Positions 20,240 through 63,327 are shown, counted from the stretch's first letter. The stretch is DNA of 64,000 nt from Lachnospiraceae bacterium (GCA_014804265.1 JAAVAC010000021.1:700-64699); one strand, 5' to 3'. Numbers and translations: made by a program. Notes: generated by a model from the letters alone, not told the origin.

Positions 20240-21427
20240 TTAATATTTTATGGAAAAATATGCCCTGGCATATGCACCTCCCTTTTCCTTGTTGCCAAGA
20301 CTTAATTTTCCTCCATGGGCTTCGCAGAAAACTCTGCACAAATAAAGGCCCAGTCCAAAATGTGTCAAAGAATCCGCCTCTTTTCCATGATAATAAGACT
20401 TTGTAAGAGTTTCAAAGGATTCTAAAAAACCTTCTCCGTCATCTGACACTTCTATGACAAAAAAGGACCGTTCTGTATACAAGGCAATTTGAATTTCCTC
20501 TCTGGCATACCGGATTCCGTTTGTAAGAAGATTTTCCAATACCTCCAGCATGATGGAGTCATCCCCGTATAATTCATTGACCTCTACCTGTTCTCTAAGC
20601 TTCCATCTAATTCCCTTTTCCTTACACAACATCCTGACCGTGAAAAGCAGCTTCTTTTTCAGCGCTTCATAGGAAACCGCTTTATATTCCGGCTTTCTTT
20701 CCTCCAGCTTAGACATTGCCCGGGTAATATCCAAAAAGTCATTCAGCCGTTCCATCTGCTTCATTTCCTCTTTGAGCATTTCCTGAATCCTTTCTTTCTC
20801 AAGCTCCTTCTCTCCCACAAGCTCTAAAAGCATTTCCTGATATCCCTTCATGACTGCCAGAGGCGCCCGCATGTCATGGGAAATGGCTGCTCTTAAGTTC
20901 TTTTCATTTTCCACCATCTGCCACATCCTTTGATTATTTTCCAATAGCTGGCCTCGCATTTTTTCAAAGGAACGGCATACCTGCCCCATTTCATCCTGAT
21001 TGTCATACTCGATAGTAAAATCCAGTGTATTTTCCCTGATTTTTTCCGAGCCTTCCATGAGAATTTTTAAAGGATATCTTAATTTATTCCGGTAAAACAA
21101 AAACATTGCCATGACACAGCCTGCAACAGAAAGAATCAACACATCCCATGTACTGATAAAATCACAGGCTTCCACGATTACATTGTCCATATCCGCCATA
21201 TAATAGCTGCCGACCCGGCTCACCTCACCCGTGAATTCCGGTATCTGCTCTTCCATTTCTATCTGCTTTAAAACTGTCTCTTCGTCTATATATTGACTCC
21301 ATATTCTTTTTTGGGTCCTTTCCGCAAAATACGTAAGTCCCACGGAAAGAAAAAAGCTGCTCATCAGGGCAATGCATAAATAAAGGACCATTGTTTTTTT
21401 TAAGGTAAGATTTCTTATTTGTTCCAT
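20240..21427 (-). CDS. sensor histidine kinase
   Basis: Two TM segments, H-box ISHDMRAPLAVMKGY, and a HATPase_c domain (GLGLYLCRVFCEAHGGKLSL). Confidence 0.85.
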   Translation of the reverse strand: MEQIRNLTLKKTMVLYLCIALMSSFFLSVGLTYFAERTQKRIWSQYIDEETVLKQIEMEEQIPEFTGEVSRVGSYYMADMDNVIVEACDFISTWDVLILSVAGCVMAMFLFYRNKLRYPLKILMEGSEKIRENTLDFTIEYDNQDEMGQVCRSFEKMRGQLLENNQRMWQMVENEKNLRAAISHDMRAPLAVMKGYQEMLLELVGEKELEKERIQEMLKEEMKQMERLNDFLDITRAMSKLEERKPEYKAVSYEALKKKLLFTVRMLCKEKGIRWKLREQVEVNELYGDDSIMLEVLENLLTNGIRYAREEIQIALYTERSFFVIEVSDDGEGFLESFETLTKSYYHGKEADSLTHFGLGLYLCRVFCEAHGGKLSLGNKEKGGAYARAYFSIKY

Positions 21428-22092
21428 TTATAACCGCACCCCCAGACCGTTTCTATCCATTCCCTCTCAGAGTATTGGGAAAGCTTGTTCCGAATGCGTC
21501 GTATCAGCTCCGTCACGACTCTACTGTCTCCCTCGCCTTCATAGGAGCAGACCCTTTCATAAATCGTTTCCTTATCATAGACATATCCTGCATTTCCTGC
21601 CAGAAATTCAATAATCTCATATTCCATTTTCGTAAACTCGATTTCCTCTTCTCCCCATGTAACAGTCCTTCCGGCAAAATCAATGCCAAGCTCTCCAAAG
21701 AAACGGATCTTTGCTTTTTGCCCGTGACGTTCTTCCCGTTTTAAATGGGCTATGATCCTTGCTTCCAGCTCCTTTAGGCTAAAAGGCTTTCCAATATAAT
21801 CATCCCCGCCGGAAAGCAATCCATTGATCCGGTCCTGCTCCTCAATTTTTGCCGTTAAAAAAAGAATGGGGCAGCTTACTTTGTCCCGGATGAGCTTACA
21901 TAGGGAAAGTCCGTCCAGTCTGGGCATATTGATGTCCAATAAAATGATGTCCGGTTCTGTTTCTATTTTCTTTAAGGCTTCTATTCCGTTTTCTGCCTGG
22001 TAAACCAGATAGCCTTTTTTGTCAAAATATAGTTTTAGCATTTTTAACAGATCTTGATCATCGTCTACCAGTAGGATTTTGTATTGGGTCAT
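21415..22092 (-). CDS. OmpR-family response regulator
   Basis: Receiver domain (KILLVDDD...DIILLDINMP) plus a winged-helix output (VWGCGYKW). Start set at MTQYKILLVDDD after AGGAGG. Confidence 0.9.
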   Translation of the reverse strand: MTQYKILLVDDDQDLLKMLKLYFDKKGYLVYQAENGIEALKKIETEPDIILLDINMPRLDGLSLCKLIRDKVSCPILFLTAKIEEQDRINGLLSGGDDYIGKPFSLKELEARIIAHLKREERHGQKAKIRFFGELGIDFAGRTVTWGEEEIEFTKMEYEIIEFLAGNAGYVYDKETIYERVCSYEGEGDSRVVTELIRRIRNKLSQYSEREWIETVWGCGYKWNK

Positions 22093-22166
22093 GGGAAATG
22101 CCTCCTGTTGTTTTGGGGAGTTTGTACTGGGGTTGCTGGTTTTGGGAAGGTGGTGGCGGGGCGGAC

Positions 22167-22394
22167 GCAAAAGAGGGATGTGGGTGGATTCCAGGCGGTG
22201 TTTTTGATGGAGTTTTTCCTAAACAGCCTGATTTAAGGTGTTGGTACCGGTCGGGTCGGCATATAGCGCCGTCCGTGGCGCAATATGCCTAAAATTGCCG
22301 TCCATGGCAATTTTCCCCTGGGTTCGTGGACAGGCTGTTAAGGAAAAGCACCATCAAAAACAATGCCTGGAATCCACCCACATCCCTCTTTTGC
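22167..22394. repeat. 228-nt foldback: 30-bp perfect inverted repeat extended to ~64-nt arms around a 100-nt centre
   Basis: 22167-22196 (gcaaaagagggatgtgggtggattccaggc) is the exact reverse complement of 22365-22394. The next 34 nt inward pair with 5 mismatches. The centre holds small hairpins with GTCCGT and GTCCAT loops. Confidence 0.85.
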
Positions 22395-22460
22395 TGTTTC
22401 GTTTCTGCCTGTACGCTTTGCTAAGCTGTTGCCGCCTTTTAAAGTAGGGGCAAGGCTTTT

Positions 22461-22700
22461 CAAGGTATTCCGCAGATAAAGTAACATTTGCTTTTTTAAT
22501 TGTTTCCAAAAAGTTCCAGGTTATTCCGAAGATATTATAACGCTTGGTTTTAAATTATTTTCAGAGAGCTTCAGGTTGTTTTAAATAAAATATCAATTGC
22601 TTTTAAATCTCAAAAGAGTTCCAGATTATTTTATTCCAATCATAAATATCATCCGCTTTTAAATCCCTTCCAAGTCGTTAAAATCATTACAAAAGAATAA
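22461..22700. repeat. degenerate AT-rich tandem repeats (about four units of ~50-58 nt)
   Basis: Recurring units by eye: tyCAGgTTatt...GCTTTTAAAT...AAAAGaGTT. Confidence 0.5.
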
Positions 22701-22733
22701 GCCTTTAGTATAGCAGAGGGCTTTCGATACCCA

Positions 22734-22881
22734 GTAGGAACTGGCATATCATCTAGTAGTCTTCTGGGCCTTGGCAAAGTCGCCAGCACTTACGCACCGT
22801 ATTTGGGTGCGTTAGTACTGCTGCGTCTTTGCAGAGCGAGAGCGTGCCCAGAAGACTACTAGATGATATGCCAGTTCCTAC
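22734..22881. repeat. 148-nt long hairpin element, copy A (unclassified; candidate structured RNA or DNA palindrome)
   Basis: 22734-22769 is the exact reverse complement of 22846-22881. The conserved 76-nt interior is shared with 63192-63267. Confidence 0.85.
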
Positions 22882-23010
22882 GTCCTCCTATCCAAAACCC
22901 TTCCCCCCTTTCCCAAAATTATAGCATGAAAATCCCAACAAAAAAACAACAGTCCCAACTAATTAAGCAAATATATAAAATTTGTTTTTTTACAGACATA
23001 AATATCCCTC

Positions 23011-23039
23011 TTGCCCCTTCCCCCACCCTGTGCTATAAT
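23011..23039 (+). promoter_or_regulatory. sigma-A-type promoter for the preQ1 riboswitch operon
   Basis: TTGCCC (23011-16), 17-nt spacer, and an extended -10 TGcTATAAT (23031-39). Lies ~20 nt upstream of the aptamer. Confidence 0.55.
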
Positions 23040-23061
23040 AACCATACTTTACAAGTACATA

Positions 23062-23101
23062 AGACAGTTCGTGACCATCCTGTCTCTAAACAAAACTAGG
23101 G
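23062..23101 (+). promoter_or_regulatory. preQ1-I riboswitch aptamer
   Basis: AGACAG-UUCGUGACCAUC-CUGUCU-CUAAACAAAACUAGGG parallels B. subtilis queC AGAGG-UUCUAGCUACAC-CCUCU-AUAAAAAACUAAGG. Shared features are a short P1, UUC after P1, a C before the P1 3' strand, and an A-rich tail ending ACUAGG. The downstream genes are queuosine-related. Confidence 0.75.
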
Positions 23102-23157
23102 ATTTCAAGAAGGCTTTGCGCAAAAGGCGCACAGGCTGTTTCTTTTGCATGAAGATG

Positions 23158-23188: not shown

Positions 23189-23244
23189 TATTGCAGGATT
23201 TCTGCAATCCTATCCGATTCTTGGAACATCCCGGAAAGGAACTT

Positions 23245-23979
23245 ATGAAAATGGATTTTGAACCAAACCGCTATTCTGTTATTGAAGAAAAAAATCCAAG
23301 GGAAATTGTTATGCTTCGGGGAAAGGGTTGTGCCTGGAGGCGCTGCCGCTTTTGTGATTATCATTTGGACTCTTCCCCGGATGAAGCCGCCAATTTTGCC
23401 CTGAACCGGGAACAACTTTTAAAGATCACCGGCATCCATCACAAGCTGGAAGTCATCAATTCCGGCAGCTTTGTGGATTTGGACGAACCCACCATTGCCC
23501 TGATTGAACAGGTCTGCCAAAGTCATGGGATTTTGGAGGTACATTTTGAGTGCCACTGGTGTCACAGGGAAGAAATTCCGGCCTTTCGTGCCCGCTTTGC
23601 CAAAAAGGGAATGACTCTGAAAATAAAAATCGGTGTGGAAACCTTTGATTCCCTTTTTCGGGAAAGCTATTTGGATAAAGGCATTGATACGGATAATCCA
23701 GAGGAAATTGCCGCTTATTTTGATGAAGTATGTCTTTTACAGGGCATTCCCGGACAGACCGTAGAAAGCATGGACCGGGACATTCAGACAGGTCTTGCTT
23801 ATTTTGAACGGGTATGTATCAATATCATGCAGGAAAATAGAAAACCTATTAAGCCAGACCCAGAGGTGATTGCTGCTTTTACAAGGGAGCTTTATCCCAA
23901 ATATGAATCAAACAAACGAATTGATATTTTAATGGAAAACACCGCTTTTGGTGTGGGAGGAGTTGTGGAACATGCGTAA
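23245..23979 (+). CDS. radical SAM protein (candidate queuine/queuosine-salvage enzyme)
   Basis: Cys triad GCAWRRCRFCDY near the N-terminus. Start set at the ATG after GGAAAGGA. Its stop overlaps the start of the YhhQ gene. Under preQ1 riboswitch control. Confidence 0.7.
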   Translation: MKMDFEPNRYSVIEEKNPREIVMLRGKGCAWRRCRFCDYHLDSSPDEAANFALNREQLLKITGIHHKLEVINSGSFVDLDEPTIALIEQVCQSHGILEVHFECHWCHREEIPAFRARFAKKGMTLKIKIGVETFDSLFRESYLDKGIDTDNPEEIAAYFDEVCLLQGIPGQTVESMDRDIQTGLAYFERVCINIMQENRKPIKPDPEVIAAFTRELYPKYESNKRIDILMENTAFGVGGVVEHA

Positions 23980-29736: not shown

Positions 29737-29960
29737 GACATATCTCCTTCCTCCAGCAGTAGATTTACAAATAAAGTACACAACAACCTGTCATGCAAAA
29801 ATATGATTTGAAGTGTTGCAACAACTTCCTGCTAAATACATACATTATACACTACAATGCAATTTATTTAGCTTTCTATTTATTAGAGGATTCGACAAAT
29901 AAAAAGGTTCCCTAAAAACATACATTTTTTTATCTGATATAAATGCACCTGCTCTGCACA

Positions 29961-29993
29961 CAAAAAAGAACCCTGATTTTTTCAAGGTTCCTT
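29961..29993 (-). terminator. intrinsic terminator after the upstream sigma / anti-sigma pair
   Basis: gaaccctga / tcaaggttc hairpin (one mismatch). A6 precedes it on plus, which is T6 after it on minus. Confidence 0.5.
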
Positions 29994-62241: not shown

Positions 62242-62673
62242 TTAAATGCTAAATCCCAATTCCGCCATATGTTCTGCGATTTCTTCCATATCGTCATAAT
62301 TGCATGTGCCTTCAAATCTTTCCCTGCTCCAGATTTCTATCCGGCTTCCCACACCAATCAGTGTCACATCCTTCTCTAAATCTGCAAATTCCCGGAGCAC
62401 ATTGGGTACAAGAATCCTTCCCTGCTTGTCCACTTCCACGCTGGCCGCTCCTGCCAGGAAGAAACGTACGAATTGTCTGGCATCTTTATTGGTGATGGGC
62501 AGTGATTTCAGCTTTTCTTCAAAAGCGCTCCATTCATTTTGGTCATACACAAAGAGACATCCGTCCAAACCTTTCGTCACTACAAATTCATCACCAAGTG
62601 CATCACGAAATTTTGAAGGGACAATGAGTCGGCCTTTTGCATCAATTGTATGACTGTACTCTCCCATGAACAT
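62242..62673 (-). CDS. mraZ: transcriptional regulator MraZ
   Basis: [23 protein letters not shown] plus a second SpoVT/AbrB-like repeat ([10 protein letters not shown]). ATG lies 5 nt after AGGTGA. Confidence 0.95.
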
Positions 62674-62718
62674 AATAATCACCTACGTGGTGTGGTTTTA
62701 ATAAATATGGGGTATATT

Positions 62719-62760
62719 TACCACTCTCTACCACTTTATACCACTTTCCACCACTTATGT
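62719..62760 (-). promoter_or_regulatory. candidate MraZ operator: four direct AGTGGT repeats at exact 10-bp spacing
   Basis: Minus strand reads ATAAGTGGTG GAAAGTGGTA TAAAGTGGTA GAGAGTGGTA. A TATAAA hexamer lies just upstream, and the site ends 46 nt before the mraZ ATG. Confidence 0.65.
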
Positions 62761-62980
62761 GACCATTTTATACTATTGAGAGTGGTATTACAAGCTTTTT
62801 TTTAGAATTCTGGGCAAAAAAAAATACGCCTGATTCGGCATATTTTTCATGGGTTCTATATGTTGTGGGAACGTGTTTTCGGTGTGCTATATGCTGGGAA
62901 ATGGTTTAGAAGGGGGGATAGACGGATGCGGATGCGGAAGAGGGATGTGGGTGGATTTGCCTGTACCTTCTGTGAAAGCA

Positions 62981-63105
62981 GATGCCTTGATTTAGATATG
63001 CTATATAAAAATGCGCTTATTTAAAATATGCATATTTAAAGTACATCATTTTAAGATGCGCTATTTTAAGATACACTTATTTTAAAATTCACCGATATAA
63101 AGATA
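62981..63105. repeat. about eight tandem ~15-nt AT-rich repeats (consensus ryrcnwATTTAArAT)
   Basis: Read by eye: gcgcttatttaaaat / atgcatatttaaagt / acatcattttaagat / gcgctattttaagat / acacttattttaaaatt ... Confidence 0.6.
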
Positions 63106-63160
63106 CTCCTAAACAGCAAACATCTCATCAATTATGAAATGCCGGCCTTTACGATACACA

Positions 63161-63298
63161 GTAGGAGCTGCCATATAGTAGCCTTAGGGGCCTTGGCAAA
63201 GTCGCCGGCACTTACGCACCGTATTTTGGTGCGTTAGTACCGCTGCGTCTTTGCAGAGCGAAAGCGTGCCCCAAAGACTACTATATGGCAGCTCCTAC
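63161..63298. repeat. 138-nt long hairpin element, copy B
   Basis: 63161-63181 is the exact reverse complement of 63278-63298. The interior 63192-63267 differs from copy A at only 4 positions. Confidence 0.85.
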
Positions 63299-63327
63299 GT
63301 CCCCCCGCCAAAAGCCCCATCCAATTT

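Follow-up and report, generated by a model that had tools for sequence, protein, structure and literature searches.

The window analysed here, a 64,000-nucleotide stretch of a Lachnospiraceae genome (GCA_014804265.1, JAAVAC010000021.1:700-64699), shares 95-96% identity with CAMWWJ010000003.1 and synteny with JAAUZH010000009.1. Two copies of a long hairpin lie within it in the same orientation, and the genes nearest to them are ordinary ones: those of an OmpR-type response regulator and a histidine kinase, an ORF without a Pfam match, lgt, mraZ and rsmH. A reading made from the sequence alone (hereafter the sequence-only reading) had described a perfect outer stem and a second copy at 63161-63298 with an interior differing at 4 of 76 positions, and both descriptions were confirmed (Table 1). 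Inverted repeats of this class numbered three in the window: the two copies and an element of the TwoAYGGAY family (RF01731) that adjoins copy 1. The apical hairpin pattern was matched twice in the window, against 0 expected. The folding energy of the 199-nt unit of copy 1 was -110.6 kcal/mol, compared with -52.9 ± 4.3 kcal/mol for dinucleotide shuffles (z = -13.5).

Table 1. Positions of the hairpin copies, their parts and the adjoining elements, counted from the first letter of the window.
Feature	Position	Strand	Remarks
TwoAYGGAY (RF01731) partner module of copy 1	22167-22394	-	RNA at 22197-22364; 95.1 bits against a gathering score of 43
Outer stem of partner module	22365-22394 with 22167-22196	-	perfect, 30 bp; junctions AACA-stem-GTCC as in the hairpin
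AT-rich spacer between head-to-head modules	22395-22717	.	about three repeats of roughly 55 nt at 22505-22665
Copy 1, 5' inner flank GGGCTTTCGATACCCA	22718-22733	+	faces the spacer and the partner module
Copy 1, outer-stem 5' arm	22734-22769	+	exact reverse complement of 22846-22881
Copy 1, conserved 76-nt core	22770-22845	+	three-way junction: GGCAAAG/CTTTGC + CGC/GCG + CAG/CTG helix, apical hairpin, GNRA mini-hairpin
Copy 1, apical hairpin CTTACGCACC-GTATTTG-GGTGCGTTAG	22789-22815	+	conserved T·T mismatch; invariant in 47 copies
Copy 1, GC-GAGA-GC mini-hairpin	22836-22843	+	GNRA tetraloop
Copy 1, outer-stem 3' arm	22846-22881	+	complements 22734-22769
Copy 1, outer 3' tail	22882-22915	+	GTCC, then C-rich and G-poor; terminal inverted repeat no longer recognisable
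Copy 2, left-partner remnant GGAAGAGGGATGTGGGTGGATTTGCC	62936-62961	+	near-identical to an outer-stem arm of the TwoAYGGAY beside copy 1
AT-rich block between remnant and copy 2	62952-63143	.	window-specific; 15-nt-period repeats at 62988-63102
Copy 2, full type-A unit	63146-63317	+	nhmmer 176 bits
Copy 2, outer-stem arms	63161-63191 / 63268-63298	+	
Copy 2, core	63192-63267	+	
Copy 2, GC-GAAA-GC mini-hairpin	63258-63265	+	GNRA

All four interior differences between the copies are structure-neutral: CAG/CTG is replaced in copy 2 by CGG/CCG, a compensated pair, the GAGA loop becomes GAAA within the GNRA pattern, and one change lies in the apical loop. The arms of copy 2 are 31 nt long and 94% complementary. 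The changes in them had been described as paired, and paired substitutions and a mirrored 5-nt deletion were indeed seen, but two mismatches besides are uncompensated. The likeness between the copies reaches past the hairpin in both directions: CGATACMCA stands ahead of it (5'), and GTCC with a C-rich tail comes after it (3').

Other features of the neighborhood were also recorded. The response regulator/histidine kinase operon (21415-22170, 20240-21427) has its likely ATG 75 nt downstream of the TwoAYGGAY element that adjoins copy 1. On the plus strand at 23011-23105, what looks like a strong promoter (TTGCCC-17-TATAAT, TG upstream) precedes a preQ1-riboswitch match that stays below threshold (27.3 bits against 39, E = 0.0045), and a 262-aa ORF without a Pfam match lies downstream (23191-23979); a divergent preQ1-I aptamer with a transporter under its control is a possible reading of the match. 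Four GTGGT repeats on the minus strand with 10-nt spacing (62719-62756), just upstream of mraZ (62242-62682), are probably the MraZ operator boxes of the dcw-cluster promoter.

The hairpin family and its conserved core

The sequence-only reading implied a novel structured RNA with two copies; the hairpin is instead a dispersed repeat of about 140 copies. The further copies that it had envisaged were found by two routes. An exact-pattern scan for the apical hairpin, covering one genome per species, gave at least 93 stretches among the matches listed from eight Lachnospiraceae genomes, and an nhmmer profile search of those loci gave at least 141 copies (eight genomes). JAAUZH01 holds at least 35 copies and CAMWWJ01 at least 25; the other carriers among the matches listed were a Robinsoniella MAG, CAJUEX01, CANCYR01, CAMWLB01, an Eisenbergiella MAG and Eubacterium sp. 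MSJ-13. All copies are intergenic, in co-directional, divergent and convergent gene contexts, and their orientation relative to neighboring genes shows no significant bias (26 co-oriented, 17 opposed). Many lie at contig ends: a high-copy repeat family of gut Lachnospiraceae such as this one breaks metagenome assemblies.

No known family could be assigned from the sequence alone, and searches of Rfam 15 with both copies and with the type B and type C relatives described below likewise returned none, at gathering scores or at E ≤ 10. The only Rfam matches, all sub-threshold, were to plant miRNA hairpin models and were rejected as artefacts of shape. The RF01731 covariance model did not match either hairpin copy, even at E ≤ 10 (threshold 43 bits), and the element was not found in phage, plasmid or viral-contig collections. 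The family is undescribed in Rfam and in the literature searched, where no description of it was found.

The presence of individual copies differs between related genomes. The window contains an empty site at 29943-29961, where locus L022 (JAAUZH010000009.1) holds a type-B copy just after an intrinsic terminator; a copy present in L081 is lacking from L040, and L064 and L068 form another presence/absence pair. The type-B copy of L022 (291-2136) is itself broken in its apical hairpin by an unrelated 1.6-kb IS4-like element with a 438-aa transposase and a duplication of about GCACTTACGCA. A 160-nt insertion lies at the apical hairpin of L039 too, and this hairpin may be a preferred target of other mobile elements.

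The copies occur in several forms. Type A, to which both window copies belong, is recognized by polar flanks, GGCnTTTCGATACMCA before the stem and GTCC with a C-rich tail after it. In an alignment of 47 type-A copies the consensus GGCnTTtCGATACaCA stood directly 5' of the stem, and GTCC stood directly 3' of it in 45 of the 47, with a C-rich consensus beyond; the tail of some other copies finishes in GGCTGAACTGTTAC. Type B is a perfect palindrome of 190-240 bp, and type C resembles it except that its core, though related, shows compensated changes in the apical stem.

The core helix consists across copies of GGCAAAG/CTTTGC, CGC/GCG and a third segment, CRG/CYG. What the sequence-only reading had taken for an asymmetric AGAGCGAGAGCGU bulge is actually the GC-GAGA-GC mini-hairpin, and a GNRA loop is found at this place in 99 of 100 non-redundant copies (GAAA 44, GAGA 40, GGGA 10, GCAA 4, GCGA 1). 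In two copies the closing pair of the mini-hairpin has changed from C:G to U:A. The conservation of the GNRA loop together with this change of the closing pair indicates that the plus strand of the window is the sense strand. The folding energies of the two strands are equally good.

Between orthologous loci the core differed at 5 of 587 nt, while the flanks had diverged by about 7-8%. Relative to the flanks, the core was in the forward orientation in 51 units and inverted in none. The conservation of the core, its retained asymmetries and its fixed polarity together indicate that it is under purifying selection. A sub-family (L013, the L027/L031 locus, L028, L036, L037, L061 and L078) is marked by an additional hairpin of 35 nt, GTCCCCGATACAAGATCGGGG, inserted into the core helix on its 5' strand. 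The orthologous loci L027 and L031 differ in this respect, with a plain core in one genome and the extra-hairpin variant in the other between identical outer stems, which suggests that cores are exchanged between copies.

Terminal repeats and the two-module unit

Terminal repeats and target-site duplications were not recognizable at either window copy, nor at most type-A copies, and the status of all these copies as MITEs rests on their homology to copies that have both. The loss of the termini, with orthologous positions kept in related genomes, argues that both window units are old and probably immobile.

The ends are better preserved in the relatives. Type B and type C elements terminate in GT-AACAGTTCAGCC...GGCTGAACTGTT-AC with 8-bp direct repeats outside, and the long palindromic relatives have the ends GTAACAGTTCAGCC...GGCTGAACTGTTAC. 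Among 19 single-module elements, the 8-bp flanks were identical at eight of eight positions in six, at seven in four and at six in four (14 of 19 at 6/8 or better), whereas control windows shifted outwards reached 5/8 at most. A DNA-level palindrome or MITE had been named as the alternative to an RNA in the sequence-only reading, and these relatives, with terminal inverted repeats and 8-bp duplications, favor it. Terminal inverted repeats of ISBst12 type were recognized in the type B and type C relatives and in some type-A tails (GTAACAGTTCAGCC compared with ISGka4, ISDge4 and L127-L129). The ends of ISGka4 on pHTA426 read GTATCTATTCAGCCC...GGGCTGAATAGTTAC, with GACGAGTT as its duplication, and ISDge4 has the end GTAACTGCTCAGCA and an 8-bp direct repeat (PMC12898284). 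Three metagenomic IS66-family homologues have termini of the same kind, none of them identical to those of the MITE.

The units are 150-500 bp long and non-coding, with no recurrent ORF in or beside the copies. About 1 Mb of fetched loci yielded neither an IS66-type transposase nor an autonomous insertion sequence bearing these exact termini, and all-against-all clustering of 611 neighboring ORFs, in which a nearby mobility gene was sought, gave common paralogous families only. The earlier observation that no transposase or reverse transcriptase lies near the hairpin thus stood, as ORF clustering and homology search gave none. A terminus-like pair at L082 encloses trpE and was rejected as an insertion sequence. 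Mini-palindromes of 40-50 nt that lack a core and consist of two terminal repeats only (GTAACAGTTCAG...CTGAACTGTTAC) were seen at L017 7331-7380, L025 3131-3170 and L026 76-115, and are apparently collapsed elements.

The association of copy 1 with TwoAYGGAY recurs. In about 32 of 94 loci a TwoAYGGAY element stands head to head with the hairpin, and the geometry is always the same: on the 5' side of the hairpin, on the opposite strand and 120-430 nt from the apical hairpin, with a spacer that varies between loci from about 10 to 340 nt. The outer stem of TwoAYGGAY in these genomes is copy-specific, near-perfect and 30-36 bp long; its very large P1 stem was noted before by Weinberg et al. At L016 one 8-bp duplication, CTCTCCAA, surrounds a left terminus, a module on the minus strand, an AT-rich spacer, a type-A hairpin on the plus strand, its C-rich tail and a right terminus. 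This single duplication implies that the head-to-head pair is one transposable unit, and the polar flanks of type A are then no more than the two sides, inner and outer, of one long terminal arm. A clean duplication around TwoAYGGAY-hairpin pairs was not found at L042 or L043, and L016 is the only two-module unit that shows one.

Copy 1 is thus a right-hand module with TwoAYGGAY as its left-hand module, and of the partner of copy 2 only a remnant survives, preceded by a G-rich stretch that is the tail in reverse complement. At L047, the JAAUZH orthologue, the remnant abuts the 5' flank of the hairpin and the AT-rich block of the window is absent. AT-rich tandem repeats lie on the inner (5') side of both window copies, and similar low-complexity spacers were seen at many further loci (L004, L040, L043, L048 and L091); the central spacer seems prone to repeat expansion.

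No hairpin copy was found on 32 metagenome contigs with TwoAYGGAY (L094-L125), which argues that the link between TwoAYGGAY and the hairpin is specific to this clade. On these contigs from other taxa, TwoAYGGAY elements often form head-to-head pairs of their own, 156-330 nt apart (for example L102 1988-2581), each element with its own long perfect outer stem of up to about 70 bp. A head-to-head arrangement of modules is a general feature. TwoAYGGAY is an orphan Rfam motif known since 2010. In these genomes it has the transposon-like chassis of the hairpin and makes up a single transposable unit with it. In this clade the motif has the look of a MITE module rather than of a small-RNA gene standing on its own. 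Functional models of TwoAYGGAY must reckon with such a chassis.

Complementarity of the outer stem

The sequence-only reading had concluded that the fold itself is maintained. As a description this holds: across the 47 type-A copies 98.9% of cells were paired, and 35 of 60 pairs changed on both sides, in 380 cells. None of 500 shuffles reached the observed pairing values, and slid registers came nowhere close. The outer stem varies between copies and is perfect within 52 of 83 non-redundant copies. A reading of this pattern as selection on an RNA helix is not supported. Both arms carry exact mirror images of insertions as long as about 30 nt and of tandem duplications (L015, L020, L084, L025 and L055), and paired indels of this length cannot come from independent compensatory mutation. 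Mismatches between the arms were A·C in 29 cases and G·T in 24, with no excess of G·U; an excess of 17 to 8 in a first alignment, considered for choosing the strand by wobble pairs, vanished in the larger outer-arm set (24 to 29). Every helix of the element is also a DNA inverted repeat and open to copying from arm to arm. The mirrored indels and the lack of a G·U excess argue for such DNA-level copying between the arms rather than for selection on an RNA helix.

Between orthologous copies about 8% diverged, changes in both arms (about 4 independent events) were as frequent as changes in a single arm, against about 0.05-0.15 events expected from independent mutation. Intramolecular template switching is a known route from quasipalindromes to perfect palindromes (PMC7202029, PMC8604942, PMC5941160). 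Correction of this kind accounts for perfect arms, mirrored indels and substitutions in both arms without selection. Unlike what is seen here, it also predicts an occasional inversion of the spacer, and it would wipe out the asymmetries of the core, so that selection must oppose the switching there.

We propose that the arms are kept complementary mainly by copying one arm from the other at the DNA level, by the mechanism known from quasipalindromes (intramolecular template switching or hairpin-directed repair). Whatever mutation or indel befell one arm would be either erased or mirrored. The asymmetric core, with its GNRA mini-hairpin, T·T mismatch and junction bases, would escape homogenization through purifying selection, presumably as a folded single strand in the plus sense that is recognized by some protein, either as RNA or as single-stranded DNA in the course of transposition or replication. 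Selection for pairing could add to the complementarity of the arms. For the discovery of RNA motifs these stems are a caution: hundreds of "compensatory" changes, paired indels included, can come from copying between the arms of a palindrome, and covariation alone would wrongly certify an RNA here.

Interpretation and related systems

The family is dispersed in many copies and polymorphic between genomes, with ISBst12-type termini, 8-bp duplications and, at one locus, a single duplication around a two-module unit. We consider it probable, at roughly four in five, that the hairpin is a palindromic module inside a non-autonomous MITE of the type moved by ISBst12-group (IS66-family) DDE transposases. 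In its single-module form such an element would be a palindrome of about 190-240 bp with arms running from the termini GTAACAGTTCAGCC and GGCTGAACTGTTAC to the conserved core. In its two-module form, modules would stand head to head around an AT-rich spacer, each with its C-rich tail running outwards to a terminal repeat, and both window copies would be the right-hand modules of old two-module elements whose terminal repeats have decayed. By itself the MITE model leaves the conservation of the central core unexplained, since a transposase needs the termini only. The GNRA mini-hairpin in particular is not explained by a transposon model, and it offers a concrete experimental target.

In an alternative reading, the element would be first of all a gene for a structured small RNA, with the plus strand as sense, that MITE-like spread merely distributes. 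Its perfect stem would serve as a helix for processing, by RNase III for example, and so free the three-way-junction core, and its C-rich 3' tail would be a Rho-dependent terminator or a seed pairing with Shine-Dalgarno sequences. In favor of this are the near-invariant GNRA tetraloop with its compensated closing pair, the asymmetries conserved within an otherwise self-correcting palindrome, and a core about 10 times better conserved than the flanks between orthologues. The fixed polarity relative to the flanks (51 to 0) and the tail that is C-rich and G-poor on one strand only point the same way. Against it, a conserved promoter or intrinsic terminator was looked for at the copies and not found, and the orientation to neighboring genes is unbiased. 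The outer stem lacks a G·U excess, both strands fold equally well, and mini-hairpins of the GCGAAAGC type are unusually stable in single-stranded DNA too. We regard a small-RNA gene as possible yet doubtful, and it is compatible with the MITE explanation as an added layer.

The sister module adds to the case for RNA, as TwoAYGGAY has been judged probably an RNA and put forward as a candidate sponge for CsrA (PMC2864571; PMC4333381). In a broader version, a shade more tentative again, the core and TwoAYGGAY would both be functional structured RNAs on a common ISBst12-type MITE chassis, for instance protein-sequestering or RNase III-processed small RNAs. If so, a transposon framework would be spreading interchangeable small-RNA modules through Lachnospiraceae genomes, and the long self-correcting stems would be processing helices.

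A cis-regulatory element of the host, acting as a bidirectional terminator, a stabilizer of mRNA 3' ends or an invertible promoter switch, is improbable. Many copies do lie 8-76 nt past the stop codon of a convergent gene, copy 2 after lgt among them, and perfect inverted repeats around a short segment recall invertons. However, no T-run comes after the stem on either strand, copies are found whether the flanking genes are divergent, convergent or co-directional, and their presence differs between related genomes. A terminator scan gave no intrinsic terminator at either window copy, and an inverton was rejected on the count of 51 forward cores with none inverted. Least probable of all is a REP/REPIN-like element moved through single-stranded hairpins by a RAYT (IS200/IS605-like Y1) transposase: the stem begins with GTAGG or GTGGG, which recalls the GTAG of REPs, and the palindromes are intergenic, multi-copy and clustered in alternating orientation like BIMEs, but arms of 36-95 bp around a 76-nt core far exceed a REP (a 20-40-nt palindrome), no Y1 transposase recurs near the copies, and the relatives carry 8-bp target-site duplications and IS66-type termini, neither of which is known for REP/RAYT elements.

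Among known systems, TwoAYGGAY is like the hairpin in its long copy-specific stem, in the junctions ACA-stem-GTCC and in a C-rich tail that sometimes finishes in GGCTAAACTGTTAC. It differs in its core, which has two AYGGAY-loop hairpins in place of a three-way junction with a GNRA loop, and it is far more widespread. The ERIC/IRU elements and the Correia/nemis elements of Neisseria are imperfect palindromes of about 100-150 bp, intergenic and multi-copy, that can form long hairpins in mRNA, and Correia hairpins are substrates of RNase III. The hairpin family resembles them in being palindromic over its whole length, intergenic, multi-copy and capable of a hairpin in mRNA. In those elements, however, the conserved part is the terminal repeats, a GNRA-bearing core and pairing with a second kind of module are not known, and the target duplications and transposase families are others.

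The closest likeness is to MITEs of the ISBst12 group. The termini GTAAC..TTCAGCC match ISGka4 at 13 of 15 positions and ISDge4 at 11 of 14, the target-site duplications are 8 bp in AT-rich targets, and the elements are short, non-coding and multi-copy, with a presence that varies between genomes. The hairpin family is probably a bacterial MITE of the IS66/ISBst12 type; it is not RF01731, REP/RAYT, a terminator or an inverton. Unlike other MITEs of that group, it is best conserved in a central structured core and not in its termini alone, and its arms between termini and core diverge fast yet remain perfectly complementary. It also has a two-module head-to-head build, and the window copies are without termini. 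The departures from ordinary MITEs are the strongly conserved GNRA-bearing central core and the chassis held in common with TwoAYGGAY.
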